Shown: positions 3,010 through 24,850, numbered from the stretch's first letter. The stretch: DNA of 32,000 nt from Xylella taiwanensis (GCF_013177435.1 NZ_CP053627.1:1590001-1622000), one strand, 5' to 3'. Numbers and translations: made by a program. Notes: a model not told the origin generated them from the letters alone.

Positions 3010-4320
3010 TCACCTGAATTTAAGTTCAACTGTTTCTTTTGTGATGTCTCTCAAAGAAGGATTATTGTCTATATCAATCGTCCACCTTGCTTTAGTCACG
3101 TCTTGTGAAGTAGAAACAGACCTCAAATGCACAATGGTTCCATCACTCAAATCGGCCCTATAAATGCCTGGCCTCATCTCCTTTAAAGGTACATTTCCTG
3201 CCAATTCCTGCGCATAGTTTTTAATTTGCTGCTCGGTTAAAGCCTGAGAATCAAATACCTTCGCATTACCCGCTTTATTACTTCCCCCTTGCACTTTAGG
3301 GTCATACGGTATGGCTTTGAACTCCACGCCTCCAACGACTAAGCCATCCTTTGCATTGCCCTTACCAATTACGCCTTTTACGTTATCTAAGTAATTTTGC
3401 TGCTGCGCTACAACATTCCCAATCGGCTTTTGGATTAAATGTTGAGCATCCTGCGCAATCGCCTCCGCGCGGCCCAGCTGATAGGCCTTAGACGCGGCCA
3501 TGCCTTCCAAGACATCTTTACTCAGATTGATGCCTACGTTGGTAAGGGCCGCGCCGCCTTTGGCCACGCCGCCCACCCCCAAGACAACTGAACCAATATC
3601 CCAGACCAGGGTGCCAAGATCGCGACCGTATTGCTCGGCATGCTGATTACCTCCAACGGTCAGGGCCGTCTGCATGCGATCAATCTTGTGATCTATCTCC
3701 TGAAAAACGCTGTCGCTTAATTGCTGGCGTACTTCTGGGTTGGTGATCAGCTCCTTCAGGCCACGAAGGCCAGCCATGGGGTTGGAGAGAAATTGCACCA
3801 GTCCTTGAATATCGCTGAGGCCTGATTCGGCTAAGCCTTTGACTAATCCAACGCCCGTTAATCCTTCTTGTCTTGCATAAATGGAACCCCATTTGGCCGC
3901 CACTTGCAGTGATTCCAAGAGGCCATTGGCCGCTGCAAGCTCCTGATTCATTTGCGCGTTTTGCTGGGTGGCAAGCCAGTTGTTATCCAGCGCCGCAGTG
4001 GCTGCATGGGTGGCACTGGCTGCATGGGCATCGCCGGCGCTGGCAATGCCCGTGACCAGGGAAAGAATCAGGTTGCGTTTTGCTTCACGCTGCTGGGCGG
4101 TTTCATCGGGCGTGGTGGCGCTGAATAAACCGGTGAGTACGCTGGAGGCCGCCGCGCCCGTGGCCCCGCTGCCGCAGCCTTGCTGGCTGGCCGCGGCACC
4201 GGCGCACGCCACGATGGCATGCAAGGCCGCGTGTAAGGGCGTGCCTTCGGTGAGTTGCCCGTTGGCGACCAGGTGACCGATATAGGAGGCGCCTTGTTGC
4301 TGTACGTAGTTCACCAGCAT
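3010..4320 (-). CDS. Orphan cdiA-CT module with variant pretoxin motif (ALDNNWL), a distinct roughly 200-aa middle domain and a family-A toxin domain
   Basis: The 436-aa ORF contains ..ACAGAAASQQGCGSGATGAAA...ALDNNWLATQQ.. and ends ..KARWTIDIDNNPSLRDITKETVELKFR. The same frame stays open upstream to about 4571 (..VVSGLQREVGTFINNRAQEATQTQQALDSERAKPEH..). It is closed by a TAA inside repeat R2, so there is no start codon at the 5' end of the homology. Confidence 0.8.
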   Translation of the reverse strand: MLVNYVQQQGASYIGHLVANGQLTEGTPLHAALHAIVACAGAAASQQGCGSGATGAAASSVLTGLFSATTPDETAQQREAKRNLILSLVTGIASAGDAHAASATHAATAALDNNWLATQQNAQMNQELAAANGLLESLQVAAKWGSIYARQEGLTGVGLVKGLAESGLSDIQGLVQFLSNPMAGLRGLKELITNPEVRQQLSDSVFQEIDHKIDRMQTALTVGGNQHAEQYGRDLGTLVWDIGSVVLGVGGVAKGGAALTNVGINLSKDVLEGMAASKAYQLGRAEAIAQDAQHLIQKPIGNVVAQQQNYLDNVKGVIGKGNAKDGLVVGGVEFKAIPYDPKVQGGSNKAGNAKVFDSQALTEQQIKNYAQELAGNVPLKEMRPGIYRADLSDGTIVHLRSVSTSQDVTKARWTIDIDNNPSLRDITKETVELKFR

Positions 4321-4580
4321 GGTGTTAGCTACCTCGCGCGTGGCAGCGCTGGCATTGCCACTGATGCCGGCGGCTAAGGCGGTAGTGATTTGCCGATAGG
4401 TGCCGCCGGGGGCCCAAGTGGCGTTGTCTTGGAGGCGTTGGTGTAGGGCCGCGATTAGGGCCGGGTCACGTTGGTGTTCGGGTTTGGCGCGTTCGCTGTC
4501 TAGGGCCTGTTGGGTTTGGGTGGCTTCTTGAGCGCGGTTGTTAATAAAGGTGCCGACTTCGCGCTGTAGGCCGCTGACGA

Positions 4581-4820: not shown

Positions 4821-5213
4821 TCAAAAAGCCCACTCGTAATCATCCTCATCAGGTTCTCCTTCTATTTCGGTTTTAAACAACCAGGCTGCGACAAATGGAC
4901 ACTCCTCCATCACTAACCACAGTCCTTCCTTTAGTCCTTCATCCGACGCAGGAAAATATTGTCTGAACAGCTCCACTAGCTCCTCGGTGGGACCCTGCAT
5001 AATACGCTCGTCCTTTCTATGACCAAGCTTGAAACGACCTCCATCAAGTAATTTCCTGATGATAAACAGGAAATCGTTTTTTCTTTCCTCAAATGAGTCC
5101 GGATCTACTTGATCAGCAAAAACTCCATGCGCCTCCGTTACATAATCCCAAAGGAAATGCAAAGGCTCTCCTTCACTGTCACAAATAAAATCTATCTGCT
5201 CTTGGGTTAACAT
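4821..5213 (-). CDS. CDI immunity protein, family A (ImmA)
   Basis: The ATG at 5211-5213 gives MLTQEQIDFICDSEGEPLHFLW.... A GAGGTG-type Shine-Dalgarno-like sequence overlaps the stop of the upstream toxin stub. Confidence 0.8.
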   Translation of the reverse strand: MLTQEQIDFICDSEGEPLHFLWDYVTEAHGVFADQVDPDSFEERKNDFLFIIRKLLDGGRFKLGHRKDERIMQGPTEELVELFRQYFPASDEGLKEGLWLVMEECPFVAAWLFKTEIEGEPDEDDYEWAF

Positions 5214-5224
5214 CACATCACCTC

Positions 5225-5554
5225 TCACCTAAATTTAAGTTCAACTGTTTTATTTGTAATCTCCATCAAAGAAGGATTCTTCTCTATATCAATCGTCCAC
5301 CTCGCTCCGGTTTCTTTTTGTGAAGAAGAAACGGACCTCAAACGCACACTGGTTCCATCACTGAGTTTAGCCAGATAAACCCCTGGGCTGACCTGCTTTA
5401 AAGGCACATCTCCGGCCAATTGCTGCGCATAGTTTTTAATATCCTGATCAGTTAAGGCCTCTGATTTAAACACCTTCACATGACCCGCTTTATTACTTCC
5501 CCCTCTCACTTTGGGGTCATACGGGGTGGCTTTGAACTCCACGCCTGCAATCAC
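5225..5554 (-). pseudogene. Family-A toxin stub (last roughly 105 codons only)
   Basis: The frame opens immediately after an in-frame TGA (..TGA GTG ATT GCA GGC GTG GAG TTC AAA..). Homology to full-length family-A toxins begins at ..GVEFKATPYDPKV. No pretoxin or delivery region is present. Confidence 0.75.
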
Positions 5555-5618
5555 TCATTCATAATTAAGCTGATTTAACTAGCCGCTGGTAACATCATGT
5601 CATCAGCGGCCTTGATGC

Positions 5619-6044
5619 TCATCCAAACAAATTGCGCAAGGATTCATTAATCTCATCCCCGGTGATGACTTCATCGGACTCTTCGTAATCCTCGGGCTTG
5701 TTGTAGTCAAATTCGATATTGAACTTAACTTGACCGGATTCAGCATTGGGACGAATAGTACATGTCAAACCCCAGATACGATCTCCAGTGAACTTCATAA
5801 GTTCATCCCTAATATAAAAAACAGCATCGGCAGCACGACAACGAAAATCCTTAGACCCACCAATCCATTTCTCATCCACACGCCCGTCTTTTACTAACCA
5901 CCATTCAGATGAAACCATTTTAGAAAAAACACCATATTTACCCACCACTTCATCCCAAGCGCGCTCGCCTGGAAATGCCATCACATCATCTGCAATGGCC
6001 TGATACGCTTCTTCGACATTTTGAAATTCAAATTCGCTATTCAT
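5619..6044 (-). CDS. Immunity protein for the His-Me nuclease CT (ImmN, 141 aa)
   Basis: Its ATG overlaps the toxin stop (ATGA at 6041-6044). It is a small acidic protein with a paralog at 27457-27894 and a remnant at 24873-24939. The layout is reminiscent of YezG/EsaG-type nuclease immunity proteins, but I did not verify that. Confidence 0.7.
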   Translation of the reverse strand: MNSEFEFQNVEEAYQAIADDVMAFPGERAWDEVVGKYGVFSKMVSSEWWLVKDGRVDEKWIGGSKDFRCRAADAVFYIRDELMKFTGDRIWGLTCTIRPNAESGQVKFNIEFDYNKPEDYEESDEVITGDEINESLRNLFG

Positions 6045-8989
6045 TGATTAAATATCCTTACAAATTCTTTACCATCAATCGTTGCTTCAACGACAAACTT
6101 ATTCGGTCTCACGCCACCAGTGGCCGGATAACCCAGATCGATTTTGACACTCACGGACTTACCGTCATGCAATGCTTGATGAAAATGATGTTCCATTTTT
6201 CTCCAATCGGTTCTGTTCAAAATCTGTGCTTGGGGCACGAGATTGATCCTATCACCGGCTCCGCCTAGGCTGGAGGCAATCAAATGCCCGCCTTCATCGC
6301 CCAGTTCGCCACACTTACCCATACAGCGTTGCTGGTAGGTATTGCGATCCATCTTTTTTGAAATCAAATCTGCTTGCACATTTTTTACTCGGCCTGCTGT
6401 GTCTGTCACATACCCATGACCGTTATCCAACACATAGGCTGTCTTAGGTTCCAGAGAACCATTGACCGCTTTATCCCAACCAGTGTTCTTGCTGCCTGTG
6501 GTGATTTGTTTGACCTGGCTGACATCGGCCCGCTTGGCTAACTGATCAGTCAATGCCTGACGCCGGGCGACAACATCGGTTGCACCGGAGATCCAGCGAC
6601 CGCCGATTTTGGCCGCTCTCACGCCGTATTTGGCCAGGTTGCCGATCATCACCGAGGCGATGTATTCCTCGCCTTTTTCTAGGGCCACTTGTTCTATGGT
6701 CTTTTCCCCTGAACGAATCGCTTTGATGTCTTGCCAGGCGTCATAGGCGGTCAGGCCTTTATCGGCTAACCAAAGGGCACCAATGAGCACGGGGACGAAG
6801 ACCGCGTTGTTTTCGGTTTCCAGCCGGGCTGCTGCACTGCTCACCGCCGCTTCGCCACCGGCGGCGGCGGTGATGCCGGCCACCAGGCTGGTGACGGTAT
6901 CGGTGCGCTGTTGTTTTTCCGCGGCGCTCAGGCTGGCAACGTCGGCGCCGGTGGCGCGGTCTAGTAGGTTATTGATGACCACGGCCGCCGCCGCGCCAGT
7001 GGCGCCGGCGCCGCACCCTTGGCCTTGGGCGGCAGCACCAGCGCAGCCCAGCAGGCCTTGCAGGGCCGCACGGGCCGGTTCGCTGTCTAGTTGGTCGGCC
7101 AGTGTTTTGACTTGGCTGGCGCCTAGGCTTTGCAGGTAGTTAACCGCAGCGCCTTGAAGCATTTGGGTGGCGCTGCCGGTCACGTGGCTGCCTGCGGCCA
7201 GGTTCAGGGCGGTCACAATCGTTCTGCCGGTGCCGCCTACGTCCCAGGTGGCGTTGTCTTGGAGGCGCTGTTGTAGGGCCGCGATTAGGGCCGGGTCACG
7301 TTGGTGTTCGGGTTTGGCGCGTTCGCTGTCTAGGGCCTGTTGGGTTTGGGTGGCTTCTTGAGCGCGGTTGTTAATAAAGGTGCCGACTTCGCGCTGTAGG
7401 CCGCTGACGATGGTAAAGCCGGCTTTGATCTCTTGTTCGTTGAAGATCGGCTGCAGGGTGTGGCTGGTGTCTTGGCCGGTGAGCACGTCGTGGTTGAGGG
7501 CGGCGATGGTCTCGGCGGCGGTCTGCCCGGTGCGGGCCTGTTGGCCGGCTTGGTCACGGATGGTGATGGCGCCAGCGCTGATGCCGCTTTGGGTGGTGCT
7601 GTGGCTGGCGTCGCGGGCGTTGATGACGCCGGGGGGAGCCACGCTCACGCCGTGATAGCCCGGCAGTTGGGTGCCAGGCACCTGTTCTGCGGTGGCGGCG
7701 CGGCCTTGTTGGTCGGTCCCCACGCCGCCGGGGCCACGGCTGTAGCCGCCGCCTAGGCTCACGTGGCTGGCGCTGTAGGAGGCGTGGTTGTCCAGCGCTG
7801 TTTCGCTCAGGGTGGCGGTGTCCAGGGCGTTTAGGCCCGCTTGGGCGGCGGCGGCGCTGGAGGTGATCAGGCCACCCATCAGGGTGGTGTGCCCGCCCAC
7901 GGTCACTTGAAAGCCCCCATCACCAGCCAGCAGGCCGCTTTGTTCGGTAACGCTGCTGTAGTCGCTGCGGATGGTGTGATGGTTGAGGTGGGCGCTGCCA
8001 GAAACACCAACCCCAGCGGTGAAGCTGCCGCCGATGCTTTGATCTTTGCTGCGGTACTGGTGGGTGTCTTGGAGGCTTTCGATGTCTAGGTTGCCGCCAA
8101 TGGTGGCCATCAGCTGGGGGGCGCTGGCCACGGCGCCGCGTAGGATGGTGTTGCCCCCAGATTCCAGCACCAGCAAGCGACCGCCCTGCACGCGGGTGTT
8201 GGTCCAGGTGACATCGGTACTGGCGCCGCTGCCTTTGGAGGCGCTGCCCTGGACGGTGAGGCCGGCGCTGGCGCCGCCGGTGCCCAGGTTCACCGCCACT
8301 CCCACGCCGTGACCGCTGCCGCGGCTGTCGCGGGTCATCTGTTCGGTGTTTTTGGCCGCCGCCATGACAAGGTCGCCATCGGCTTTGAGGTGGGTGACGT
8401 TGCCAGCGCTGATCTGGGTGCCGCTCAGGGTCAGGGTGGACTGTTCACCGGCGCCAGTGGCGCTGATGGTGATGTTGCCGCCGGCGTGGAGGGTGGATGC
8501 AACGGCGCGGTCGCTGTGGGTGGTGGTGGTGCTGTGGTATTGGGTGGTGCCCAGGGTCGCCGTGAGGTTTACGCCGCCCAGGACCTTGGGGTCGCTGCCG
8601 ATGGCATCTACGGCGTTTCTGGCGGCCAGGGCGGCGGTGATTCCCGCTAGGGCCTGGAGGCGGGGGGTGGAGGTCCGCCCGGCGGCCGCTGTCATGTGCT
8701 GGGTGGTTTGGAAGGCCGCAATCGCTGGATTGCTCAGGCTCGCGGTCAGGCCGCTTTGGCGAAACTTAGTTTCCTGAGTGGTGTGCTCGGTCTCACGGGC
8801 TTCGACAATGGCTACTTTTTTGCCGTGGATGTCAATGTTGCCTTCCGGGGCAATCAGGTCGATGCCAGGGGCCTGGACGGCGCCTTTGCTGGAGGAGATG
8901 AAGATGTTGCCATTGAGGGCGGCCACGGTGTTGCCCGACCCTAGGGCGGCGGTGTTGGTTTCGCCCACGGCCACGGTGGCCATGTCCAT
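6041..8989 (-). CDS. Large orphan cdiA 3' fragment (982 codons): FHA-2-type repeats, pretoxin region (ETENN at 6806-6823) and a His-Me (EssD/YeeF-like, Endonuclease_NS_2-type) nuclease CT
   Basis: The N-terminus MDMATVAVGETNTAALGSGNTVAALNGNIFISSSKGAVQAPGIDLIA matches two separate stretches of the main cdiA. The C-terminus carries ..GDEGGHLIASSLGGAGDRINLVPQAQILNRTDW... (the DxGHLIA..GG....N..PQ...N motif). There is no signal peptide or TPS domain. Confidence 0.85.
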   Translation of the reverse strand: MDMATVAVGETNTAALGSGNTVAALNGNIFISSSKGAVQAPGIDLIAPEGNIDIHGKKVAIVEARETEHTTQETKFRQSGLTASLSNPAIAAFQTTQHMTAAAGRTSTPRLQALAGITAALAARNAVDAIGSDPKVLGGVNLTATLGTTQYHSTTTTHSDRAVASTLHAGGNITISATGAGEQSTLTLSGTQISAGNVTHLKADGDLVMAAAKNTEQMTRDSRGSGHGVGVAVNLGTGGASAGLTVQGSASKGSGASTDVTWTNTRVQGGRLLVLESGGNTILRGAVASAPQLMATIGGNLDIESLQDTHQYRSKDQSIGGSFTAGVGVSGSAHLNHHTIRSDYSSVTEQSGLLAGDGGFQVTVGGHTTLMGGLITSSAAAAQAGLNALDTATLSETALDNHASYSASHVSLGGGYSRGPGGVGTDQQGRAATAEQVPGTQLPGYHGVSVAPPGVINARDASHSTTQSGISAGAITIRDQAGQQARTGQTAAETIAALNHDVLTGQDTSHTLQPIFNEQEIKAGFTIVSGLQREVGTFINNRAQEATQTQQALDSERAKPEHQRDPALIAALQQRLQDNATWDVGGTGRTIVTALNLAAGSHVTGSATQMLQGAAVNYLQSLGASQVKTLADQLDSEPARAALQGLLGCAGAAAQGQGCGAGATGAAAAVVINNLLDRATGADVASLSAAEKQQRTDTVTSLVAGITAAAGGEAAVSSAAARLETENNAVFVPVLIGALWLADKGLTAYDAWQDIKAIRSGEKTIEQVALEKGEEYIASVMIGNLAKYGVRAAKIGGRWISGATDVVARRQALTDQLAKRADVSQVKQITTGSKNTGWDKAVNGSLEPKTAYVLDNGHGYVTDTAGRVKNVQADLISKKMDRNTYQQRCMGKCGELGDEGGHLIASSLGGAGDRINLVPQAQILNRTDWRKMEHHFHQALHDGKSVSVKIDLGYPATGGVRPNKFVVEATIDGKEFVRIFNQ

Positions 8990-9028
8990 ATCACTGTCAT
9001 CGCCCGGCCTAAGGCATCACACCGGCGC

Positions 9029-13169: not shown

Positions 13170-16100
13170 TTACTCCGCGGGGGTGAGCTGTTGGCGCAAC
13201 TGCTGCAGTTGCTGTTGGCGGGAGGTGCCGGTTGGGGGCGATGCAGGGGTGAAGGGTGTCAGCATGCCTGGGGTGCCATCGAGCTGCTGTTGCCAGTAGG
13301 CCGATTGATCCAGGAGGCGTTGCAACTGGGCCAGTTGGGTGGCGACGGGGTCCTCCGGACGCCGCACCGCCTGCCATTGCTGCAGCGCTGCCATGGTCTG
13401 ATCGTGACGCTTACGGTTCATCTCATCGATATCCAGGCCGGCATAGCTGAACACCCCTTCAGGATTGACGTTGTCCGGATGGCTGCCCAGGGCGGCGGTG
13501 CCGCCGCTGCTGTGCACCGAGTAGTTGGTCTCAAAGATCTCCCGCAGGTCCTTCAAACCCGCGGTCCCCGGATAGCCACCAATAATATGGGCGACAAAGT
13601 CATTGGGCGGTGACCAGAAGCCGGGTTTATTTTTAGTAACCTGCCCCGCGACCGCCGTCAGACGGCTCTCTTCAGCCGCGGGGTTGTTGACGAAGATCTT
13701 TAATTCATCGCTCTTCACCCCAAGTGCTGCGAGCACATTGAGCGCCCCGGTTTCAGTCATGGTGCCACGGCTATGACCCACAAAATTTACCGGGTTGGTG
13801 TACTGTTTATCCGCTTCGTTATACATCAACGTCTCCGCCACCTGGGCCTGGAGCCGTGAGGCCGGGCTGACCACGCGCCCATTGCTGACCTCCATCAGCT
13901 TCTCCAGGCCGGCCACGATCAGTTCCCCCACAGTATGGGTGGGCTGGGTATGCACCACGTAGGTGGTGTTAACGTAGGTTTCGCCGGTGTCCTGGATATT
14001 TCCCTTATTCCTGTCCCACGGCGTCATTTGCAAGCCTAGTTCCGCAGCGCGGCGCAACAAGTTGCTGATGCCGTTGCCGAACACGGTGCTGTTTTTCTTC
14101 TCTTCGTCCGCCAGGGCGCGCAGCGCATCCAAGGTCACCGGGATCGCTTGGATATTGGCTACGCCGCCGGTCAGGGCCCAGCGGCTTTGGTCGGTGAGCA
14201 GGTCATCGTTGGGGCCGCGGGTGCCGGCGATGAACTCGGCGACTTTGGTCGCGTCCAAGGTGCGGTTGGCGTCGTGGATGGTGTCTGTCAGGTCGTTGAC
14301 GGCCTGCTCGCGGAGGCGTTTGTCCGACCAGCCCGGATGGGCTTGCCGCAGGGCGGCGGTGCGTTCTTCCACCAATGTGTTGTTGGCTGCATGGTCGTTG
14401 GTGCAGGGTTGGCTGACGCAGAACACCTTCTCAAGGGTCGGGCTGAGGATGTTGCTGAGGCCTTGGTCAATCAGGATGCGGCCGCTGTCGGCCAGTAAGG
14501 CGCCGGCCTGGCTGCGGTGCTGTACGTCAGCCTGCAAGGTGCCCAGGTCGGTGGCCGCCAGAGGGGTGTGGGCCCCATCCGGGTCACGGCGCAGGGTCGC
14601 CAGGGGGGCGGGATCGCCGCCGCGCAGCACGATGTTAGCCGCGCTCACCACCGCTTCGGTAGTGCTGCGGTCGTTGACCTGACGATCAGCGCTGCCCATG
14701 TGTTGACCAATCAGGGTTCTGCCGAGGCTGTAGATCGGAAGCTGGCTGTTGCCCTGGGAGAGGCCGCTGACCAGGTCGCTGCTCAGGGTGAAGCCGGAGG
14801 CACTCGCACCGGCATTGTGGTGGTTGTCCACGGTGCTGTGGCCCATGCTCTGGGTGGAGAGCTTTTGCAATGCCTGAGGGGCGCTGCTGACGATGGCGCC
14901 GCCGTCCAGTTGGGTATGGCCGCCCACGTGGATGGTGTAGCCGCCGGCGCCGGCAAATAGGCCGCTTTGGTCACGCACGCTGGCGTAGTCCTGGGTGGCG
15001 TGTTGATTGGCATGGCTGAAGGTGGCGTTGCTGCCAAGCCCGCTCATGACCAAGGTGGCGCCGGCGCTGTTTTGGCGCTGTTGGGAGCTGGCACGCAGGG
15101 TGTCCTGGCGGCTTTCGATGTCTAGGTTGCCGCCAATGGTGCCGTTGATGCTATCGGCTAAGACATGGGCGCCACGCAGTTGCGCGTTGCCACCGGCGTT
15201 GAGGGTGGCATTGCCACTGACCCGGATGGCGGTGTCCACCTGGGTGACAGACTGCTGACTGGACTGGCCTCTGCCCCGGGCGCCGCCGGCGTTGAGACTG
15301 GGGCTGGAGGAGCCCACGTTCCATTGGGCACCCACGCTGCTGCTGCTGTAGCGTTGGCTGGAGGTGTGCTCTTGGGTGCTCTGGGCGCTGTGCAGAATGA
15401 GGTCACCAGCCGCATTGAAGGCCAGGCTACCGCTGCTAATCTGGGCACCAACGGCGCTGAGTTGCCCGGTGCCCTCTTGGCGCTCGCCTTTTTCATTGTG
15501 GATGCCAAAGGCGGTGACGGAGACTTTGCCGCCGGCGCGTAGTTGGGCACCGCGGGCCGTGGTGGCGGTCATGCTGGTCTGGCTTTGGCTGGTGGTGCTG
15601 CCGAAAGAGACGCCGCCGCCGAAGGTGTGGGGTATGCCGCCTTCGCGCAGGGTCTTGATTTCGTCCAGGGCACGATCACCGGCACTGAAGGCGCTGTTGA
15701 GGGCGCGTACGCCGTACAGCGTGCTGAGTTGTCCCGTCGGGGCATGGCGGGCGTTTCTAATGTCGGCGGGCACGGCCTGGGCGAAGGTGCCCAGGGCGCT
15801 GCTGAAGCCAACGCTAAAGCCGCTGTGTTTGCTGGCCTGCTGCTGTTGAGCGCTGGCGGTGTCGTACACCGGGTCCATGGTGACGTTGACGCCGCTGACG
15901 TTGATGTTGCCGGCGGCAATCAGGTCGATGCCAGGGGCCTGGACGGCGCCTTTGCTGGAGTGGATGAGGATGTTGCCATTGAGGGCGGCCACGGTGTTGC
16001 CGGTCAAGTAGGTGGCGTGGTGGCTGCCTTGTTGGCTGGCTTTTTGGGAGCCCACGGTGAAGCCGGCGCCAGAACCGAACACGCCGCTGCGGCGCTGGGT

Positions 16101-19100
16101 GGTGCTGTAGCTGGAGCTGTGGGTGTTTTGGGCGCCGAACATGCCCACGCCGTGGGTGCCTTCAATGTGGGGGTTGCCATCGGCTATAAAGTCGGTGCCA
16201 ACGCTGTAAACCTTGTCGCCTGTGACGGTGACCTTGGTGCCGCCCAGGACGCTGCCCAGGGCAATGGTGTCTTGGCTGCTGGCGGTGCTGTGGCTACGGC
16301 TGGAGCCCCATAGGCCGCTGCGCCGGCTGGTGCGTTCTTCTTGGCCGCTGCGCCGTTCTTGGCCGGCCACCAGGGCCACGGTGCCGTCAGCAGAACTGAT
16401 GTTCAGCTTGCCTTGGCGGCTGTCCAGGGTCACGGCACGCCCGATGACGCCACCCTCGCCTTTGATGGTGACGTTGCCAGTGCCAGTAATACGGGTGCCT
16501 ACTTCGCTGTCGCGGGTGCTGTGGATGCTGTTGCCCGGTCCTAGGGTGGCGGTGTTGGTTTCGCCCACGGCCACGGTGGCCATGTTGAGTTTGCCGGCGG
16601 CGGTGACGCTGCTGGTGCCGCCCGGGCCGGTGTTGCTGAAAGTGACGCCTTGCAGGGTCATGTCTTTGTCGGAAGTCACGTGCAGGGTGCCGCCGGGGCC
16701 GGTGACGCGAAAGGTCGATGGACGGTCGATTTCGGTGCGGCTGAAGTGACGTTGGCCTGAGGTACTGTAGCCGCGTGTGGTGCTGCGGGCTATCAGGCCG
16801 CCAGCGGCGGTGACATCCAGTGAACTGCGGGCGCTGAATGTGCCGCCAATGTCGGTGAGGGTGTCTTTGGTATGCACTTTGACGTGGTCGGCGTCCATCT
16901 GGCCGCCTTCTTGGTGGATGTTGTCCGCGTCAATCGTGAGGCGGTCGCGCCCGGTGAGGGTGCCGGTGTTGGTGAGGGTGCCCGATAGGTCCATGGTGAG
17001 GCGGGCACCGGCCATGAGGGCGCCGTCGGTCTTCAGGTCCCCGCGGCGCGGGCGTAGGTAGACACGGGGCACCAGGGCGGTGGTGCTGGTGCCGTTGGGC
17101 AGGGTGACGGGTTGTTCCACCAGCCAGACGATGTCGCTGGTGAGTTGGGCCATTTGGTCAGCGCTCAGGGCGATGCCGGGGCGTAGGCCGTAGTGCTGGG
17201 CAACGGTGACGCCGGCGTCCAGCAGGGCGCGGTATTGTTGGTCGTCGTTGGCGTAGCCGTCCAGCAAGCGCCGCCCGGTGAGTTGGGCGATTTGTTCGCG
17301 GATCAGGCGTTGTTCGTAAAAGCCGTCGCCAAGGCGTTTGTGCATGCTGGCCAGGGGGTCGTTCAGGGCCTGAAGTTGTCGGTCGGCGGTGGTCCGGTCG
17401 CTGCCGCCGCTAAAGTGTGGGTCGGTGACGATGAGGCTGGCGGCGTCGGGATGGACGGTAAACAGGCGGTTGTTGGGCAGGATCAGGGGGCCAGGAACGG
17501 TGGTCGCGGTGGCCCAGGACGGGGCAGCCACGCTGATCGGGGCGTTGTCGGTGTGCAGGGTCGGTAGGCGGGCGTCCGCCAGGTCCTGCAGGGTGGTGTC
17601 GGGGATGGTCAGCGGGAGCTGGCTCTCCACGGATAAGGCGGGCTCCTCGGCAGACTGGTCCGTGCTCGGAGCCGGGGTGAGCTCGGGCATCAGCGGCATC
17701 GGGGGGCTGGTGTGCAGGTCGCCCAGGGGCGGGTGTTCGACGTGGGTGGTGGTATGCAGGGATTGCAGGCGGTTGTTGACATCCACGGCGGCGATGTATT
17801 GGTGGCCGCCGCTGGTGATGCGCCCGCCAATTTGGCCGATGGTGTAGCGCTGGGACGGCATGGTCCAGGTCTCGGCGGCGCCGGCGTAGGTGTAGCTGAT
17901 GTTGTTGAACTGCGTGGTGCGCGACAGTTCAGCAGTGAGGTTGTCGATGAGGCTGGCTTTGCTGTACTCCGGGGCTTTTTCGGGGTCCTTGGGCGGGTGT
18001 GGCGGCAGGCCAACGATGGTCTGGTCGCCACCGGCAAGGATGTCGGCGTAGTGGTTGGCCAGGCGGTCGACCTGGACGAACATGGCGCCGCCAGATTGGA
18101 TCAGCGCCGCGGCGCCGACGCCCGGTTGCAGGATGTCGTCGACGGTGGTCTTGGTGGCGTGGCGGTACTGTTCGTTGGTTTTGACATCCGTGGGGCCGCG
18201 GCGCATGTGGGTCAGGGTGTGGTCCGGGTCGGTGTAGTCACGCCAGGTGATCAGCCGGACGCAGTCGGTACGGCAGGTGCCGTAGGCCGGGTCGTAGGTC
18301 AGGACTTCGTCTTGGTAGGTGATGTGGACGTCTTGTTGGCGTTCGTTTTTTTGGGGGGTGTCCAGGCCGGCCCAGGCGCTGCCCTGCCGGGCGGCGCTTT
18401 GGACTTGGTCGGGGTTGGGTTGTTGGTCTTGGCGGTCGGTGTAGTACAGCACGACGATGCCTTCGCGCTGGCTCAGGTCCAGGCGCTGGCGTTGGCCGCG
18501 GGCGGCATACAGGCCGCCGCGGGCATACAGGTAGGCGCTGGTCTGCGGGGTCAGGCGCACCACGGCGCGGTGGATGATGTAGCCGTCCGGGGTGGTATAG
18601 GGTTCGTCTTGGAGGATGTCGTTGGGGTTGAGGTAGTAGATCTCGTGGGCGTCGTAGTTGCTGGTGAGAGTGAAGTCCGCGTCATTGTTGCGTTGGTTGT
18701 CGCGCCAGGCCGGTTGGGACATGCGTACGGTGGTGCTCACGCCGGGCGCCTGGGTGAGGTGGACGTTGTCGCGGATGTTGTTGAGGGTGGTGGTGGTGAT
18801 GTCCAAGGCGCCGTCCACGTCAATGGTGGCGCTGCGGTTGTCCAGCAGGGTGGCGCTGCCGGTGGCGTGGCGATCGCTATCCAAGGTGCCGCCAATGGCG
18901 GCATCGCCGGCGCTGTAGATCAGGGCGGCGCCGCTGTTACGCACGGTGGCCGCGCCAATGTCCAGGCGTTCGCGGGCGGCAATGGTGGCGGCGTGGGTCT
19001 GGCCGGCGGTGGATTCATCGCGGTTGGTGAGGGTCTGGGCCTGGAGGGCGAGGTGGTCGCCGTAGAGGCGCGCGGTGCCAATGTTGTCGAGGGTGGCGGC

Positions 19101-22100
19101 CTGGAGGTGGGTGGTGGCCGCATCAATCAGGCCGCGGTTGCTCAGGGTCGCAGTGGCGGTCAGTTGGGCCTGGCCGCTGGCGGTGATTTGGCCGGTGGCA
19201 GCGTTGTCAATGGTGCGGGCCTGCAGGGTCAGGTCGCCGGTGTGCAGCAGGCCGGCGTTGCTGAAGGTGTCCGCGGCGCTGAGCTGGGCTTGGCCGCTGG
19301 CAAGGATCTGGGCGGCGGCAGCGTTATCGATGCGCTGGGCGTGCAGGGTCAGGTCACGGCCCTGAAGCAGGCCGCTGTTGCTCAGGGTCGCGGTGGCGGT
19401 GAGTTGGGCTTGGCCGCTGGCAGCCATCTGCCCGGTGGCCACGTTATCGATGCGCTGGGCCTGCAGGGTCAGGTCACGGCCCTGAAGCAGGCCGCTGTTG
19501 CTCAGGGTCTCGGTCGCGGTGAGTTGGGCCTGGCCGCTGGCAGCCATCTGCCCGGTGGCCACGTTATCGATGTTCTGGGCGTGCAGGGTCAGGTCACGGC
19601 CCTGAAGCAGGCCGCTGTTGGTGAGGGTCTCGGTCGCGGTGAGTTGGGCTTGGCCGCTGGCAGTCATCTGCCCGGTGGCAGCGTTGTCAATGGTGCGGGC
19701 CTGCAGGGTCAGGTCGCCGGTGTGCAGCAGGCCAGCGTTGCTGAAGGTGTCCGCGGCGCTGAGCTGGGCTTGGCCGCTGGCAGCCATCTGCCCGGTGGCA
19801 GCGTTGTCAATGCGCTGGGCGTGCAGGGTCAGGTCGCCGGTGTGCAGCAGGCCGGCGTTGCTGAAGGTGTCCGCGGCGCTGAGCTGGGCTTGGCCGCTGG
19901 CAGCCATCTGCCCGGTGGCCACGTTATCGATGCGCTGGGCGTGCAGGGTCAGGTCCGCCGCCTGGATAAGGCCGCGGTTGTGCAGGGCCCCGGCGGTACG
20001 CACGGTGAGCAGGCCGGCGGCGCTGAGGGTGCCGCCGTTGTCCAGACCTTCCTGCAGGGCCAGGGTCAGGGCGGTGCCAGCATGCAGCAGGCCGGCGCCG
20101 CTGAAGGCGCTCAGGTGCAGGCTTTGGGCGCCGCCACTCAGCAGGGTGCCGGCTTGGTTGGTCAGTTGGGCGGCACTCAGCTGTAGGGTGCCGCCGGCAG
20201 TGAGGCGTCCGGCGGTGTTCTGCAGGGCGCCGCGTAGGGTCAGGGCGATGTCTTGGGCAGCGCTGAGGTGGCCATCGCGGTTATCCAGGGTGGTGCTGTC
20301 GATCTGCAGGTGGGTGGCGTGCAGGCCGGTGGCCGGGGCGGCGGTGTCACGGGGGCGGGAGCCAGGGTCCGGGGCCGCAGGGGTCGTTCGGTTGTCCAGG
20401 GTGGTGGTGGTGATCGCCAGGGCCCCGGCGGCGCTGATCAGGCCGTCGTGGTTGTCCAGGCGGTTGTCTAGGTGCAGGCGCGCATCCGCGCCGCTGTGCA
20501 GGCGTCCGCCGGTGTTGCTCAGGGTGTGGGCGTCGATCTGGAGACCGTTGGCGCCGCCAAGTTGGCCGCCAGCGGTGTTGTCAATGTGGGTGCTGTGCAG
20601 CTGGGTGGCGGCTTGGGAGAATACTTGGCCGCCGTGGTTGTTTAGGGTGGCGCTGCGCAGGTCGAGGGCGCCGCCAGCCAGTAGGGCGCCGCCGGCGCTG
20701 TTGTCCAGAAGGTGCGGGCCGGTGTCGATGCGCAGGGCAGTGGCCGCTTGCACCAGGCCGGCACGGTTGTCTAGGACGCCGCTGTGCAGGGTCACGGTGC
20801 CGCTGGTGCTGCCCAGGCGGCCACCGCGGTTGTCCAAGGGTTGGTTTTGGGTGTACAGGGTCACTTGGGCGCCGCTCAGGGTGCCGGCGCGGTTGGTCAG
20901 GCCGGCGCTGCTGAGCCAGAGGGCTTCGCGACTCTGCAGCAGGCCGGCGCTGTTGTCCAGCAGGCCGCTCAGGTGCAGCTGCGCTGCGCCGGCCGCGTCC
21001 AGGGTGCCGTGTTGGTTGAACACGGTGGCCGCGCTCAGGCGCAGGTCTTGGCCGCTGGACAGGGTGCCGTTGTCTTGGTTGTTGAGGGTGCCAGTAACGT
21101 GCAGGTCCAGCAGACCGGTGGCGGTGTGCAGGACGCCGCCGCGGTTGTCCAGGGTGCTGGCGTGCAGGGTGCCAGGGCCGCTGAGCAGCAGCTGGCCTTG
21201 GGTGTTGTCCCAGGTGCCGGTGGTCAGGGTGGCCGGGCCAGTGAGCAATAGATGGCCGCCGCGGTTGTCTAGGGCTTGGGTGGCCTCCAGGCGGCTGGCG
21301 CCGGGGCCGGTGCTGTGCAGGGTGCCGCCGCGGTTATCCAGGGTGGCGGTGTGTAGGTCCAGCACGCCGTTGGTGGCGATGCTGCCGCCACGGTTGTCCA
21401 GGCGGGTGCGGGCCTCCAGTTGGAGGGCTTGGTCTGACTGGGCGGTAAGTTGGCCGCCGGCGGTGCTGAGGACGCCGGTACGGATGCTCACGTGCTGGGC
21501 CCAGGTGGTGCCTTGGCTCAGGTCGGTCTGGGTGCCGGTGATGCTCAGGGCGCCTTGGCTGCTCAGGGTGCCGCCGGGGCCGAAAAGGGTGGCGGCGTCG
21601 ATCTGCAGGGACCCCTGCCCGCTGTGCTGTACGGTGCCGCCGCTGTTATCCAGGGTGGTGGCGTTGAGGGTGAGGGCGCTGCCGGTGCTGGATAGGGTGC
21701 CAGTGGTGTTGTCTAGCAGGCCACCAATGCGCAGGTGGGCCGCCTGGGGGCCGGTGTGGAGGAGTTGGCCGCCACGGTTGTTGAGCTGGTGGGTCTGTAG
21801 GTCCAGGGCGCCGCTGGCCTGAAGTTGGCCGGCGTCATTAGTAAGTTGCCCGGTCTGCAGGGTCAGAGCGTTAGCCGCGCTGGCCAGCACGCCGTGTTGG
21901 TTGTCCAGTAGGCCATCAATGCGCAGGTGGGCCGCCTGGGGGCCGGTGTGGAGGAATTGGCCGCCACGGTTGCTGAACTGTTGGGTGTTCAGGGCCAGGG
22001 CGCCGCTGGCCTGAAGTTGGCCGGCGTCATTAGTAAGTTGCCCGGTCTGCAGGGTCAGAGCGTTAGCCGCGCTGGCCAGCACGCCGTGTTGGTTGTCCAG

Positions 22101-22535
22101 TAGGCCATCAATGCGCAGGTGGGCCGCCTGGGGGCCGGTGTGGAGGAATTGGCCGCCACGGTTGTTGAACTGTTGGGTGTTCAGGTCCAGGGCGCCGCTG
22201 GCTTGGAGTTGCCCAGCGGCGTTGTTGACCACTTGGCTGTGAATGAGGGCCTCTGCTGCAAGGTGCAGGATGCCGTGACGGTTATCCAACCCTTGGCCTT
22301 GCAGGGTCAGTTGGTTCAGGGCGGCGTGGCCGTGGCGGTTGTCCAGGCCGCTCAGGGTGGCGTTGATGGCGCCGCCAGCCGTGATGAGGCCGCCGCGGTT
22401 GTCAATGTCACTCTCTAGGGTCAGGCGACCGTCGGCCAGCAGGGAGATGGCAGGGGGGGACGCAGGCAGGGGGGAGGTGTCGTTGCCAGGAGGTTCAATG
22501 GCAACGGAAGGGGGGGGGGCTGCCAGGAGGCTCAA
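13170..22535 (-). CDS. cdiA: cdiA/tpsA-type exoprotein, distal 3121-codon frame (FHA-1 repeats, central region, FHA-2 repeats, lipase-like C-terminus); out of frame with the TPS part
   Basis: It contains hundreds of LDN(R/S)GG-type beta-helix repeats and the conserved ..KRLGDGFYEQRLIREQIAQLTGRR..LTSDIVWL.. block. The track start is a TTG inside the coding continuum. The frame joins 22495-23865 if the C-run is 9 nt instead of 10 nt. Confidence 0.9.
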   Translation of the reverse strand: MSLLAAPPPSVAIEPPGNDTSPLPASPPAISLLADGRLTLESDIDNRGGLITAGGAINATLSGLDNRHGHAALNQLTLQGQGLDNRHGILHLAAEALIHSQVVNNAAGQLQASGALDLNTQQFNNRGGQFLHTGPQAAHLRIDGLLDNQHGVLASAANALTLQTGQLTNDAGQLQASGALALNTQQFSNRGGQFLHTGPQAAHLRIDGLLDNQHGVLASAANALTLQTGQLTNDAGQLQASGALDLQTHQLNNRGGQLLHTGPQAAHLRIGGLLDNTTGTLSSTGSALTLNATTLDNSGGTVQHSGQGSLQIDAATLFGPGGTLSSQGALSITGTQTDLSQGTTWAQHVSIRTGVLSTAGGQLTAQSDQALQLEARTRLDNRGGSIATNGVLDLHTATLDNRGGTLHSTGPGASRLEATQALDNRGGHLLLTGPATLTTGTWDNTQGQLLLSGPGTLHASTLDNRGGVLHTATGLLDLHVTGTLNNQDNGTLSSGQDLRLSAATVFNQHGTLDAAGAAQLHLSGLLDNSAGLLQSREALWLSSAGLTNRAGTLSGAQVTLYTQNQPLDNRGGRLGSTSGTVTLHSGVLDNRAGLVQAATALRIDTGPHLLDNSAGGALLAGGALDLRSATLNNHGGQVFSQAATQLHSTHIDNTAGGQLGGANGLQIDAHTLSNTGGRLHSGADARLHLDNRLDNHDGLISAAGALAITTTTLDNRTTPAAPDPGSRPRDTAAPATGLHATHLQIDSTTLDNRDGHLSAAQDIALTLRGALQNTAGRLTAGGTLQLSAAQLTNQAGTLLSGGAQSLHLSAFSGAGLLHAGTALTLALQEGLDNGGTLSAAGLLTVRTAGALHNRGLIQAADLTLHAQRIDNVATGQMAASGQAQLSAADTFSNAGLLHTGDLTLHAQRIDNAATGQMAASGQAQLSAADTFSNAGLLHTGDLTLQARTIDNAATGQMTASGQAQLTATETLTNSGLLQGRDLTLHAQNIDNVATGQMAASGQAQLTATETLSNSGLLQGRDLTLQAQRIDNVATGQMAASGQAQLTATATLSNSGLLQGRDLTLHAQRIDNAAAAQILASGQAQLSAADTFSNAGLLHTGDLTLQARTIDNAATGQITASGQAQLTATATLSNRGLIDAATTHLQAATLDNIGTARLYGDHLALQAQTLTNRDESTAGQTHAATIAARERLDIGAATVRNSGAALIYSAGDAAIGGTLDSDRHATGSATLLDNRSATIDVDGALDITTTTLNNIRDNVHLTQAPGVSTTVRMSQPAWRDNQRNNDADFTLTSNYDAHEIYYLNPNDILQDEPYTTPDGYIIHRAVVRLTPQTSAYLYARGGLYAARGQRQRLDLSQREGIVVLYYTDRQDQQPNPDQVQSAARQGSAWAGLDTPQKNERQQDVHITYQDEVLTYDPAYGTCRTDCVRLITWRDYTDPDHTLTHMRRGPTDVKTNEQYRHATKTTVDDILQPGVGAAALIQSGGAMFVQVDRLANHYADILAGGDQTIVGLPPHPPKDPEKAPEYSKASLIDNLTAELSRTTQFNNISYTYAGAAETWTMPSQRYTIGQIGGRITSGGHQYIAAVDVNNRLQSLHTTTHVEHPPLGDLHTSPPMPLMPELTPAPSTDQSAEEPALSVESQLPLTIPDTTLQDLADARLPTLHTDNAPISVAAPSWATATTVPGPLILPNNRLFTVHPDAASLIVTDPHFSGGSDRTTADRQLQALNDPLASMHKRLGDGFYEQRLIREQIAQLTGRRLLDGYANDDQQYRALLDAGVTVAQHYGLRPGIALSADQMAQLTSDIVWLVEQPVTLPNGTSTTALVPRVYLRPRRGDLKTDGALMAGARLTMDLSGTLTNTGTLTGRDRLTIDADNIHQEGGQMDADHVKVHTKDTLTDIGGTFSARSSLDVTAAGGLIARSTTRGYSTSGQRHFSRTEIDRPSTFRVTGPGGTLHVTSDKDMTLQGVTFSNTGPGGTSSVTAAGKLNMATVAVGETNTATLGPGNSIHSTRDSEVGTRITGTGNVTIKGEGGVIGRAVTLDSRQGKLNISSADGTVALVAGQERRSGQEERTSRRSGLWGSSRSHSTASSQDTIALGSVLGGTKVTVTGDKVYSVGTDFIADGNPHIEGTHGVGMFGAQNTHSSSYSTTQRRSGVFGSGAGFTVGSQKASQQGSHHATYLTGNTVAALNGNILIHSSKGAVQAPGIDLIAAGNINVSGVNVTMDPVYDTASAQQQQASKHSGFSVGFSSALGTFAQAVPADIRNARHAPTGQLSTLYGVRALNSAFSAGDRALDEIKTLREGGIPHTFGGGVSFGSTTSQSQTSMTATTARGAQLRAGGKVSVTAFGIHNEKGERQEGTGQLSAVGAQISSGSLAFNAAGDLILHSAQSTQEHTSSQRYSSSSVGAQWNVGSSSPSLNAGGARGRGQSSQQSVTQVDTAIRVSGNATLNAGGNAQLRGAHVLADSINGTIGGNLDIESRQDTLRASSQQRQNSAGATLVMSGLGSNATFSHANQHATQDYASVRDQSGLFAGAGGYTIHVGGHTQLDGGAIVSSAPQALQKLSTQSMGHSTVDNHHNAGASASGFTLSSDLVSGLSQGNSQLPIYSLGRTLIGQHMGSADRQVNDRSTTEAVVSAANIVLRGGDPAPLATLRRDPDGAHTPLAATDLGTLQADVQHRSQAGALLADSGRILIDQGLSNILSPTLEKVFCVSQPCTNDHAANNTLVEERTAALRQAHPGWSDKRLREQAVNDLTDTIHDANRTLDATKVAEFIAGTRGPNDDLLTDQSRWALTGGVANIQAIPVTLDALRALADEEKKNSTVFGNGISNLLRRAAELGLQMTPWDRNKGNIQDTGETYVNTTYVVHTQPTHTVGELIVAGLEKLMEVSNGRVVSPASRLQAQVAETLMYNEADKQYTNPVNFVGHSRGTMTETGALNVLAALGVKSDELKIFVNNPAAEESRLTAVAGQVTKNKPGFWSPPNDFVAHIIGGYPGTAGLKDLREIFETNYSVHSSGGTAALGSHPDNVNPEGVFSYAGLDIDEMNRKRHDQTMAALQQWQAVRRPEDPVATQLAQLQRLLDQSAYWQQQLDGTPGMLTPFTPASPPTGTSRQQQLQQLRQQLTPAE
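13173..14368 (-). other. C-terminal roughly 400-aa effector region of cdiA: alpha/beta-hydrolase (lipase/esterase-like) domain with a Gln-rich tail
   Basis: The nucleophile-elbow motif is FVGHSRGT (Ser codon 13770-13772). Candidate acid/His residues lie downstream (..PPNDFVAHIIGG.., ..YSVHSSGG..). The region starts after ..FCVSQPCTNDHAANN (14369-14380). There is no two-Cys PT-VENN domain. Confidence 0.6.
19134..19973 (-). repeat. Seven tandem 120-nt (40-aa) near-identical repeats inside cdiA
   Basis: The units read GLL(H/Q)(T/G)(G/R)DLTL(H/Q)A(Q/R)(R/T/N)IDN(A/V)ATGQ(M/I)(A/T)ASGQAQL(S/T)A.... The nucleotide period is exactly 120, and several units are identical over most of their length. 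Confidence 0.9.
21639..22214 (-). repeat. Three tandem 192-nt (64-aa) repeats inside cdiA (first two nearly identical)
   Basis: GQLQASGAL.LNTQQF.NRGGQFLHTGPQAAHLRIDGLLDNQHGVLASAANALTLQTGQLTNDA occurs twice and is followed by a diverged third copy. Unit starts are at 22214, 22022 and 21830. Confidence 0.9.
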
Positions 22536-24242: not shown

Positions 24243-24263
24243 CTGAACCGATTGGAGGCCGGC

Positions 24264-24533
24264 ATGCGAACCACTCAACAAATGAGCATCACTTTGCCAA
24301 ATGACATGGCCAACGTGGTGAGAACGAAGGTGAAAACAGGAGAATACGCGAACGAAAGCGAGGTCATCCATGACGGCCTGCGCGCGCTTCTTGCACGTGA
24401 CCTTGCCGTCGAAGCTTGGCTTCACAACCAAGCAGGTGCAGCGTATGACGCGCTGAAAGCCGATCCCGCCCGAGCTATCACCCCTGACCAAGTACGCACA
24501 CGCCTCGCCGCAGAACATACGAAGGCCCGATGA
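24264..24533 (+). CDS. parD: ParD-family (ribbon-helix-helix, COG3609-type) antitoxin
   Basis: The ATG at 24264 is preceded by GGAGG with a 5-nt spacer. The motif ..MSITLPNDMANVVRTKVKTGEYANESEVIHDGLRALLARD.. is typical of ParD-type antitoxins. Its stop overlaps the parE start (ATGA). Confidence 0.8.
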   Translation: MRTTQQMSITLPNDMANVVRTKVKTGEYANESEVIHDGLRALLARDLAVEAWLHNQAGAAYDALKADPARAITPDQVRTRLAAEHTKAR

Positions 24534-24850
24534 GCTACAAGGTTGTTTTCTCACCTGAGACCGAAGAGCAGCTTGCCAAGCTATACCGCTACATCGCGGC
24601 AGCGGCCTCACCTGACATTGCAGCTCACTACACCGAAGCAATCGTCTCCTACTGTGAAAGTCTTGGCACGTTCCCCCTGCGCGGCACCATGCGCAACGAT
24701 GTACGACCTGGCTTGCGCATCACGCACTACCGCAAGCGCGTCGTGATCGCCTTCGATGTGGTTGACAATCTGGTTTCCATCATAGGCGTGTTCTACGGCG
24801 GCCAGGATTACGAAACAATCCTGCACGATCACGATGACGCGGACGAATGA
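24530..24850 (+). CDS. parE: ParE/RelE-superfamily toxin
   Basis: The 106-aa protein MSYKVVFSPETEEQLAKLYRYIA...RITHYRKRVVIAFDVVDNLVSIIGVFYGGQDYE has a typical ParE layout and is translationally coupled to parD. Confidence 0.8.
   Translation: MSYKVVFSPETEEQLAKLYRYIAAAASPDIAAHYTEAIVSYCESLGTFPLRGTMRNDVRPGLRITHYRKRVVIAFDVVDNLVSIIGVFYGGQDYETILHDHDDADE

Follow-up and report, generated by a model that had tools for sequence, protein, structure and literature searches.

Orphan cdiA-CT/cdiI modules, which pair the C-terminal (CT) toxin end of a contact-dependent growth inhibition (CDI) protein with an immunity gene, have been described downstream of the cdiBAI loci of E. coli EC93 and EC869 and of Y. 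pseudotuberculosis PB1, among others (Poole et al. 2011, PMC3150448), and have been modelled as a fossil record or silent repository (Ruhe et al. 2016, PMC4927057). Here we analyse a window of 32,000 nucleotides from Xylella taiwanensis (GCF_013177435.1, NZ_CP053627.1:1590001-1622000), in which a 982-codon orphan open reading frame (ORF) at 6041-8989 follows a full-length cdiA gene, cdiA-2, and its presumed immunity array in the same orientation. The orphan is probably a cdiA-CT/cdiI module: a truncated copy of a gene like cdiA-1, the full-length paralogue just upstream of the window, kept similar to it by gene conversion and potentially able to re-arm a secreted CdiA, chiefly via cdiA-1.

Like the described CDI orphans, this module is an apparently promoter-less 3′ fragment of cdiA in the orientation of the main gene, has its own small, presumed immunity gene and belongs to a tandem array; it also keeps a variable stretch of upstream cdiA homology and has ETENN, a candidate VENN-like motif, ahead of a variable toxin. 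Unlike the usual orphans, it retains an unusually long upstream part, the whole filamentous haemagglutinin FHA-2 region, about 2.2 kb before the toxin, and is closely partnered by a tandem paralogue, not by the gene next to it. The locus further departs from the usual arrangement in having no adjacent cdiB, no transposase or integrase between the modules (none in the gene tables), and a cdiA trunk that evolves in concert in both Xylella species.

Recombination of an orphan toxin has been shown experimentally for Rhs in Salmonella Typhimurium (Koskiniemi et al. 2014, PMC3967940). There, too, a silent toxin/immunity pair is homologous to the main gene and can be deployed by recombination, with or without duplication, although that system belongs to the Rhs family delivered by a type VI secretion system (T6SS), whereas recombination at the present locus is suggested by sequence patterns. 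In Neisseria meningitidis, the 3′ end of the two-partner secretion (TPS) exoprotein gene tpsA is reportedly exchangeable with downstream silent cassettes that share a conserved handle. The Xylella modules resemble those cassettes in their shared handle and possibly exchangeable 3′ end, but in another organism and with another toxin set.

Results

A truncated cdiA 3′ module with a predicted nuclease toxin

All relevant CDI genes of the window lie on the minus strand, with the coding direction running from 32000 to 1. The orphan and the features needed to describe it (lengths in nucleotides, nt, or amino acids, aa; E, expect value; o-type, the orphan type of 3′ end) are:

23925-13170, minus strand: main gene cdiA-2, with ESPR, TPS, FHA-1, lipase-type FHA-2 and a putative alpha/beta-hydrolase CT
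13173-9029, minus strand: five tandem DUF769 lipoprotein genes (Pfam DUF769, E 3e-107)
8990-9028, minus strand: spacer between array and orphan, opening with ~20 nt that resemble how a truncated sixth DUF769 copy might begin
8989-6041, minus strand: orphan cdiA 3′ module, the 982-codon ORF (ORF list and Pfam)
7411-8848, minus strand: o-type FHA-2 region, with 99.6% identity to cdiA-1 and, at the DNA level, 73% to the o-type cdiA of X. fastidiosa
7299-7410, minus strand: pre-pretoxin 'handle' of 112 nt, 100% identical in five copies (cdiA-1 and four orphans)
6585-7298, minus strand: pretoxin region, ETENN and the shared 70-aa segment after it (presumed entry domain), 97.8-98.7% identical across five copies
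6041-6584, minus strand: Endonuclea_NS_2 toxin domain with catalytic His motif DEGGHLIASSLGG (Pfam match, motif read in the sequence; activity predicted)
6044-5619, minus strand: presumed cognate immunity ORF of 141 aa (ORF list)
27457-29260, minus strand: paralogous nuclease orphan (391 aa) and immunity gene (145 aa) in the array trailing cdiA-1, 90% identical to 5038-7410

As an initial annotation of the window had noted, the orphan directly follows the lipoprotein array, its ATG lying 43 nt past the stop (9029) of the fifth DUF769 gene. Pfam finds two domains in it and nothing else: Fil_haemagg_2 at aa 147-318 (E 1e-38) and Endonuclea_NS_2 (PF13930) at aa 853-973 (E 1.2e-24, 87 bits against a cut-off of 27). 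The orphan has neither an ESPR signal nor a TPS secretion domain; the front of cdiA, with signal peptide, TPS and FHA-1, is missing, and homology to the trunk begins at main-gene position 16585. The motif RLETENNAV supplies the VENN-like ETENN, and the pretoxin Pfam model (PT-VENN) gave no match to the orphan at E≤0.01. About 70 aa after ETENN the variable part starts, the sequence downstream of 6585 differing among modules. The FHA-2-like region, ETENN motif and nuclease CT that had been annotated are all present, but the description of the FHA-2 as 'complete' does not hold, since the 178 codons just upstream of patch B (below) are absent relative to a full-length paralogue.

A 4-nt overlap joins the 141-aa ORF to the stop codon of the orphan, and the ORF accompanies the nuclease in both arrays; it matches no Pfam family, and we presume it to be the cognate immunity gene of the nuclease toxin. 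In the paralogous module, the toxin (27891-28434) is 91.4% identical to 6041-6584, with a ratio of non-synonymous to synonymous divergence (dN/dS) of 0.22, and the immunity gene (27457-27894) is 82.9% identical to the gene at 5619-6044, with a dN/dS of 0.41. This anatomy agrees with the annotated view of the orphan as a cdiA 3′ end, in the form of a 5′-truncated module that has its own presumed immunity gene and keeps homology to full-length cdiA.

Public annotations, including that of NCBI, list the orphan as a coding sequence of 884-982 aa, the 884-aa version starting at an internal Met. We consider it very unlikely that the orphan is a working gene in its own right, translated from the ATG at 8989 or the internal Met off cdiA-2 read-through to give an intracellular FHA-2/nuclease protein checked by the immunity protein. 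Its intact 2.9-kb frame with an ATG 43 nt from the preceding same-strand gene, those public annotations and the purifying selection on the toxin domain would fit such a role, but the product would have neither secretion signal nor TPS domain. The array/orphan junction showed no promoter-like or terminator-like sites (weak evidence, the regional scan having returned no more than the chance expectation), and no AGGAG-like ribosome-binding sequence was seen in the 43-nt spacer. Recent exchange with cdiA-1 accounts for the frame being intact, and the start Met, within NMATVAV, is a native internal Met of the trunk, making the ORF start an accident of a deletion junction. The orphan ORF is taken to be silent.

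The sister sequence of the orphan appears to be cdiA-1

A locus look-up with an orphan protein at the window's upstream edge gave 10 kb of extra sequence (loci L003-L005); the CP087686.1 locus (L002/L003) matches the window at 99.995-100%. This sequence holds the 3′ end of cdiA-1, ~15 kb further upstream; the gene is 3525 aa long and intact in CP087985.1 and split in the present genome. Its order is shared trunk, patch B, orphan-type FHA-2/pretoxin, a different toxin and a DUF596 gene. On the trunk side, L003:1-4286 corresponds to window 20196-15910 at 99.9%, with 4228 nt identical and then three single-nucleotide polymorphisms (SNPs) within patch B; on the other side, L003:4196-6546 corresponds to orphan 8935-6585 at 99.4%, with 15 mismatches in 2351 nt and a longest identical run of 479 nt. 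The o-type FHA-2 of the orphan and the lipase-type FHA-2 of the main gene are colinear, with 38% protein identity over 410 aa, so the two regions are indeed only distantly similar between the patches, as the initial annotation had said. Its choice of the adjacent cdiA as the orphan's source is contradicted, on a ground that it had itself named as refuting, by the far greater closeness to cdiA-1: the sister sequence appears to be the 3′ half of cdiA-1, not the adjacent lipase-armed cdiA-2. A fused configuration, which that annotation had implied, is found in part, cdiA-1 being trunk, patch B and orphan-type FHA-2/pretoxin, but it carries a different toxin.

Exact look-ups of two database proteins, P0001 and P0002 (WP_425521253.1), matched no contig. 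Comparison with the gene in L004, from which it differs by 3 aa, places P0002 as the C-terminal portion of cdiA-1 in a strain like CP087985; the idea that it is a chimera of short-read assembly was dropped, as the same junction occurs in three complete genomes. The orphan protein itself is found, identical and in the same context, in 20 X. taiwanensis contigs, and across ~27 assemblies all orphan variants keep the same 5′ junction, none being fused to a full-length gene. Fucosidase and TonB-receptor genes flank a third X. taiwanensis CDI locus, L001 (GCA_021206355.1, 1-1930), at a contig end. There, an o-type region with 98.7% identity to the orphan runs into the pretoxin/toxin type that the 436-aa orphan of the window (3010-4320) carries, in a gene that may or may not be full length.

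Three patches of high identity link the orphan with the main gene:

8929-8985, minus strand: patch A, matching main-gene 16529-16585; 54/57 identical (94.7%), BLAST E 3e-20, longest identical run 38 nt
8845-8935, minus strand: patch B, matching main-gene 15910-16001; 88/92 identical (95.7%), E 2e-37, longest run 46 nt
8929-8935, minus strand: deletion junction with 7 nt of microhomology, GGCAACA, where patches A and B abut
8062-8105, minus strand: patch C, matching main-gene 15098-15141; 42/44 identical (95.5%), E 1e-14, longest run 32 nt
15910-16585, minus strand: A-B interval of the main gene, bracketed by patches A and B

The first 48 codons of the orphan join two stretches of the neighbouring cdiA, patches A and B, much as had been annotated, although the main-gene coordinates then given for patch B were 5-16 nt off and the identical run reported as 44 nt measures 46. 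Base-by-base alignment likewise bears out the gap between them, with its size revised from ~550 to 534 nt (178 codons, in frame). Both full-length paralogues retain this stretch, which argues that its lack in the orphan is a deletion. Patch A is identical at 54 of 57 positions to cdiA-1 and cdiA-2 alike. The shared trunk ends at patch B, which in the orphan is identical to that of cdiA-1 of the same genome, including the SNPs that give NIFISSS; cdiA-2 and the CP087985 allele of cdiA-1 have NILIHSS there.

Patch C is of another kind. Its identity and 32-nt run are real, but it encodes a motif, TIGGNLDIESLQDT, that is conserved from Xylella to betaproteobacterial homologues, and over 48 nt the orphan matches the X. 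fastidiosa genes at 40-41 positions, almost as well as the main gene (42/48). For that reason we rejected patch C as a micro-conversion tract or retained recombination patch, as it had first been read, and it appears to reflect motif conservation rather than a recombination relic.

The spacer before the orphan opens with GTG AGC GCC GGT GTG ATG CCT TAG, reading MSAGVMP* against the DUF769 start MSAVMSMH. This is suggestive only, but would place one breakpoint inside a sixth DUF769 copy and the other at trunk position 16585, as an illegitimate junction. Three events would fit: a third tandem paralogue decapitated by deletion, insertion of a duplicated segment, or a one-sided illegitimate join. 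The signal that would distinguish a deleted paralogue front from an inserted segment is gone because the trunk has been homogenised; colinearity across species favours either of these over the one-sided join.

The lipase-type end appears to predate the species split

Every X. fastidiosa subspecies has proteins that match the last 913 aa of the main gene, with 55-58% identity over the full coverage. In subsp. sandyi and multiplex this lipase-type end likewise terminates a cdiA, with three or one DUF769 genes behind it, and colinearity of cdiA-2 with the sandyi gene begins at the promoter region and takes in the DUF769 array. Identity between X. taiwanensis and X. fastidiosa is 72.2% in the trunk, 69.2% in the A-B interval, 71.7% in the lipase-type FHA-2, 69.9% in the CT and 73.8% in DUF769; this uniformity (69-74%), with the colinearity, argues that the lipase-type end and its array were at the locus before the species split and are no recent arrival.

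Elsewhere in that sandyi genome, at the distant locus L008, lies a second cdiA. Over 7044 nt its trunk shares 99.4% identity with that of the first; its 3′ end is of the orphan type, 73% identical to the window's orphan, with DUF596 genes after it. The presence of both 3′-end classes in both species suggests that both are older than the Xylella split, while the trunks appear to evolve in concert within each species. A search of genome contigs with the o-type FHA-2 gave betaproteobacterial and other distant loci, with no Xylella among the matches listed.

The A-B interval has a different affinity from its surroundings. In cdiA-1 it is 55.6% identical to the X. fastidiosa o-type gene, against 72.5% for the flanking trunk and FHA-2, and it is 69% identical to the lipase-type gene; at patch B, 19 of 29 aligned residues agree with the lipase-type gene and 9 of 29 with the o-type gene. 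These closer matches argue for a lipase-lineage origin of interval and patch. The junction of patch B with PEGNIDIHG, found in the orphan, cdiA-1 and P0002, would then have arisen when lipase-lineage sequence overwrote an o-type gene, and the orphan's 5′ end would descend from a chimeric gene that had already recombined with a lipase-type gene. At patch A, the X. fastidiosa trunk reads LGTLNTHRSDTTQWDPRN versus MATVAVGETNTATLGPGN, and the patch is 95% identical to the X. taiwanensis trunk; being species-specific, it suggests that the orphan's 5′ end is young or homogenised.

These comparisons bear on the origin first proposed for the orphan, in which incoming DNA with a lipase-type FHA-2, toxin and DUF769 array pushed the old o-type nuclease end of the adjacent cdiA downstream, from where recombination at the patches could restore it. 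The position of the orphan right after the array and in the same orientation is as expected, its start at an arbitrary trunk position beside a truncated DUF769 copy is what a one-sided illegitimate join would leave, and it duplicates trunk sequence also present in the main gene; simulated crossovers stay in frame, the scheme is the published 'fossil record' model of orphan modules (PMC4927057), and X. fastidiosa is naturally competent (PMC12700405). We nevertheless judge it unlikely. The supposed newcomer is colinear with X. fastidiosa and seems to predate the split here, an encounter of the o-type with the lipase-type gene appears to be older than the orphan's present form, the 5′ end looks young or homogenised, and patch C is apparently a mere conserved motif. 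Moreover, identical runs of patch length (38, 46 and 32 nt) would be weak substrates next to the 2351 nt, with a 479-nt run, shared with cdiA-1.

Right after the DUF769 genes of X. fastidiosa (L006:16481-16767 and L007:14954-15229) lies a fragment of ~280 nt of that species' own lipase-type FHA-2, 71-73% identical to window 15601-15327 and followed by CAG/CCAAAG simple repeats; it is a different kind of orphan at the equivalent position.

Polymorphism patterns point to exchange among paralogues and cassettes

Comparison of strain CP087686 with CP087985 gives 6.0 SNPs/kb for the cdiA-1 trunk and 5.5/kb for patch B plus the o-type region. Across 11.35 kb of toxin, array and ParDE sequence, which is unique, there are just 3 SNPs (0.26/kb), so that the cdiA-1 regions with paralogues are ~20-fold more polymorphic. 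The cdiA-1 alleles differ mutually at 13 sites and each differs from the orphan at 14-15 sites; among the four copies the four-gamete test failed, site 5640 conflicting with sites 5860 and 5863. When the two nuclease modules are compared, synonymous divergence (dS) rises from 0.038 for the pretoxin handle to 0.256 for the toxin and 0.340 for the immunity gene, and the 714-nt ETENN segment is 97.8-98.7% identical while toxin and immunity parts reach just 72-91%. The 112-nt segment, with copies at 7299-7410, 4469-4580, 29149-29260, L003:5721-5832 and L003:7696-7807, is followed by different pretoxin types and looks like a recombination handle shared by all cassettes. Together, the patterns point to gene conversion among paralogues and cassettes.

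They also make it most improbable that the orphan is an inert, decaying fossil that exchanges nothing with the full-length genes and is kept only through its useful neighbouring immunity gene. Its 5′ truncation and internal 534-nt deletion would suit a fossil, as would the same unfused structure in all ~27 assemblies. On the other hand, the orphan is 99.4% identical to cdiA-1 over 2351 nt while neighbouring toxin and immunity paralogues have fallen to 83-91%, the regions with paralogues show the SNP excess, polymorphisms are common to paralogues in an incompatible pattern, and there is no stop codon in 2.9 kb.

Crossovers simulated at patches A, B and C each gave a single open frame. At patch B, a crossover would rebuild the architecture of cdiA-1, now with the nuclease, losing the hydrolase toxin and the five DUF769 genes; loss of intervening toxin/immunity genes is a cost of recombination noted in PMC4927057. 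Re-arming, which the initial annotation had proposed through the retained patches, is thus plausible in view of the in-frame joins and the homology kept, but with cdiA-1 as its main partner.

The main gene, its putative hydrolase and the neighbouring modules

The main gene carries ESPR, TPS, Fil_haemagg and Fil_haemagg_2 (Pfam), the make-up of a two-partner secretion exoprotein. A C10 tract at 22510-22519 (G10 on the plus strand), in a Pro-rich linker after TPS, splits it here into ORFs of 476 and 3121 aa. CP087985.1 has C9 at the tract and an intact cdiA-2 of 3557 aa, the corresponding tract of X. fastidiosa is C7, and cdiA-1 follows cdiA-2 in being split in the present genome and intact in CP087985.1. 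The difference in poly-C length could be phase variation or a homopolymer sequencing error. The FHA-1 part of the trunk (19125-19987, 20947-20967) contains 120-nt tandem repeats whose copy number in cdiA-1 varies by strain, and cdiA-2 has a 21-nt indel between strains.

The CT of cdiA-2 contains GHSRG, a nucleophile-elbow motif, and residues S281, D338 and H367 are invariant in 8 sequences. The best Pfam match is Tle3 at only E 0.13, the best Foldseek hit has E 0.05, with cutinases and lipases mixed among unrelated folds (mean AlphaFold2 confidence, pLDDT, 47), and a PDB sequence search gave no match; the 'lipase' is thus a putative alpha/beta-hydrolase only. T6SS phospholipases of the Tle group are said to come with arrays of periplasmic lipoprotein immunity proteins, Tli. 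The GHSRG motif followed by tandem lipoprotein genes, common for Tle/Tli pairs, resembles that arrangement, but delivery would be by CdiA and not by a T6SS, and none of the Tle Pfam models reaches threshold. No function is known to have been described for DUF769. Its five copies are 87-94% identical to each other, show the lipobox LLACSG, and are presumed to be the immunity set for the hydrolase toxin. Their variable blocks are mosaic, for example VQRVTDLINESYQGRPSNRAF versus VQRMVARVSAPDRAYKSNRF. With X. fastidiosa having only 1-3 copies, the array may be a diversified immunity set.

The remaining features of the window are:

31992-24900, minus strand: upstream array of orphan modules, with mostly DUF596-type immunity genes
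24929-25589, minus strand: scrambled remnant of a pre-pretoxin piece, a trunk piece and a nuclease tail, just upstream of the ParDE pair
24252-24850, plus strand: ParD/ParE pair between the upstream orphan array and the cdiA-2 promoter
down to position 306, minus strand: more orphan modules downstream of the orphan

In the remnant, a 297-nt trunk piece (25211-25507) equals 16810-17106 at 99% and the last ~265 nt of the nuclease toxin are 82% identical; it appears to be evidence of earlier illegitimate deletions in the array. Within the ParDE pair, Pfam assigns a ParE toxin (E 6e-12) and a ParD-like antitoxin (E 0.0016, below the cut-off). At the X. fastidiosa o-type locus L008, too, a ParE-type pair follows the array. 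C runs of nine bases (G9 in the gene) at 2948-2956 and 30680-30688, near the 5′ end of two DUF596 immunity genes and coding ...DLGGGFH..., are possible slippage sites. No cdiB/TpsB (ShlB/POTRA-type) gene lies beside any Xylella cdiA in the gene tables of the 46-kb region, L006 and L008 (no wider search was made), so the TpsB transporter must be encoded elsewhere.

Discussion

In the account we favour, the orphan was presumably copied from the back half of an o-type cdiA, comprising FHA-2, ETENN pretoxin, post-ETENN segment and Endonuclea_NS_2 toxin, with loss of the secretion-competent front and also of 534 nt, in frame, at a 7-nt microhomology. Patches A and B would be the trunk tail that concerted evolution keeps common to all X. 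taiwanensis cdiA copies, and the lipase-type end with its DUF769 array would be the older, orthologous occupant of the locus. While the downstream 141-aa gene would give standing immunity to the nuclease toxin, the orphan may serve as a silent cassette and gene-conversion partner: the 2.35 kb shared with cdiA-1, or the 112-826-nt pretoxin handles, could let recombination or conversion attach the nuclease to a CdiA that is secreted. Patches A and B would also allow recombination with cdiA-2, which should be rare and would delete the hydrolase toxin and all five DUF769 genes. Published models of orphan modules (PMC3150448, PMC4927057, PMC3967940) agree with this account. Its anatomy, homologies, colinearity between species and traces of exchange among paralogues are shown by the sequences, and we infer the immunity role, that the ORF is silent, how often and in which direction exchange occurs, and precisely which event truncated the gene.

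Several points weigh against this account. A nuclease-domain search gave short proteins and remnants and no full-length nuclease-armed Xylella CdiA, although its word index may miss long representatives. Both full-length genes are split at a poly-C tract in this genome, which may be a sequencing artefact or mean that the system is off. Given the intact 2.9-kb ORF with its ATG, translation off read-through transcripts is possible. The SNP-density excess and the shared polymorphisms support conversion indirectly. Concerted evolution of the trunk wipes out the history of the locus, so that an ancient displacement followed by homogenisation is conceivable, and the orthology of the lipase locus is based on colinearity and on DUF596-type orphans upstream in both species, while the downstream flanks differ.

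A broader and rather doubtful extension is that the Xylella CDI loci form a gene-conversion cassette system like pilE/pilS, swapping toxin ends often, with an FHA-2 class that matches the destination of the toxin. The homogenised trunk, the near-identical 112-826-nt handles on all silent modules and natural competence could provide its basis. The variable unit starts upstream of FHA-2, perhaps because the FHA-2 class must match the toxin's destination: a hydrolase without pretoxin/entry domain would act in the envelope, whereas toxins with ETENN and an entry domain would go to the cytoplasm. If so, this tie would explain why the orphan keeps a whole FHA-2 region.

In the genome paper on X. taiwanensis the tally of 'hemagglutinin' copies is 12, and the term 'contact-dependent' is absent from its text (PMC8176220). 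At this locus most hemagglutinin-family pieces are orphan toxin modules, and much of that 12-copy 'hemagglutinin adhesin' expansion is probably, as here, silent toxin cassettes and tandem cdiA paralogues. Through the same paper, X. fastidiosa HxfA and HxfB (PD2118, PD1792; Guilhabert & Kirkpatrick 2005, via PMC8176220) are given as adhesins with a part as antivirulence factors. Both are members of the gene family treated here, and the X. fastidiosa loci L006 and L008 share the trunk, the two 3′-end classes and the downstream DUF769/DUF596 genes.

Orphan toxin/immunity modules and their possible redeployment by recombination are already established CDI biology, to which this case adds an example and not a principle. 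What it brings out for the genus is a cdiA trunk that evolves strongly in concert in each of the two Xylella species (99.4-100% identity within, ~72% between species), alongside two FHA-2/toxin classes kept distinct across Xylella. Toxin switching, if demonstrated by experiment, would be relevant to strain competition in xylem and insect vectors, and to the reading of Hxf mutant phenotypes.

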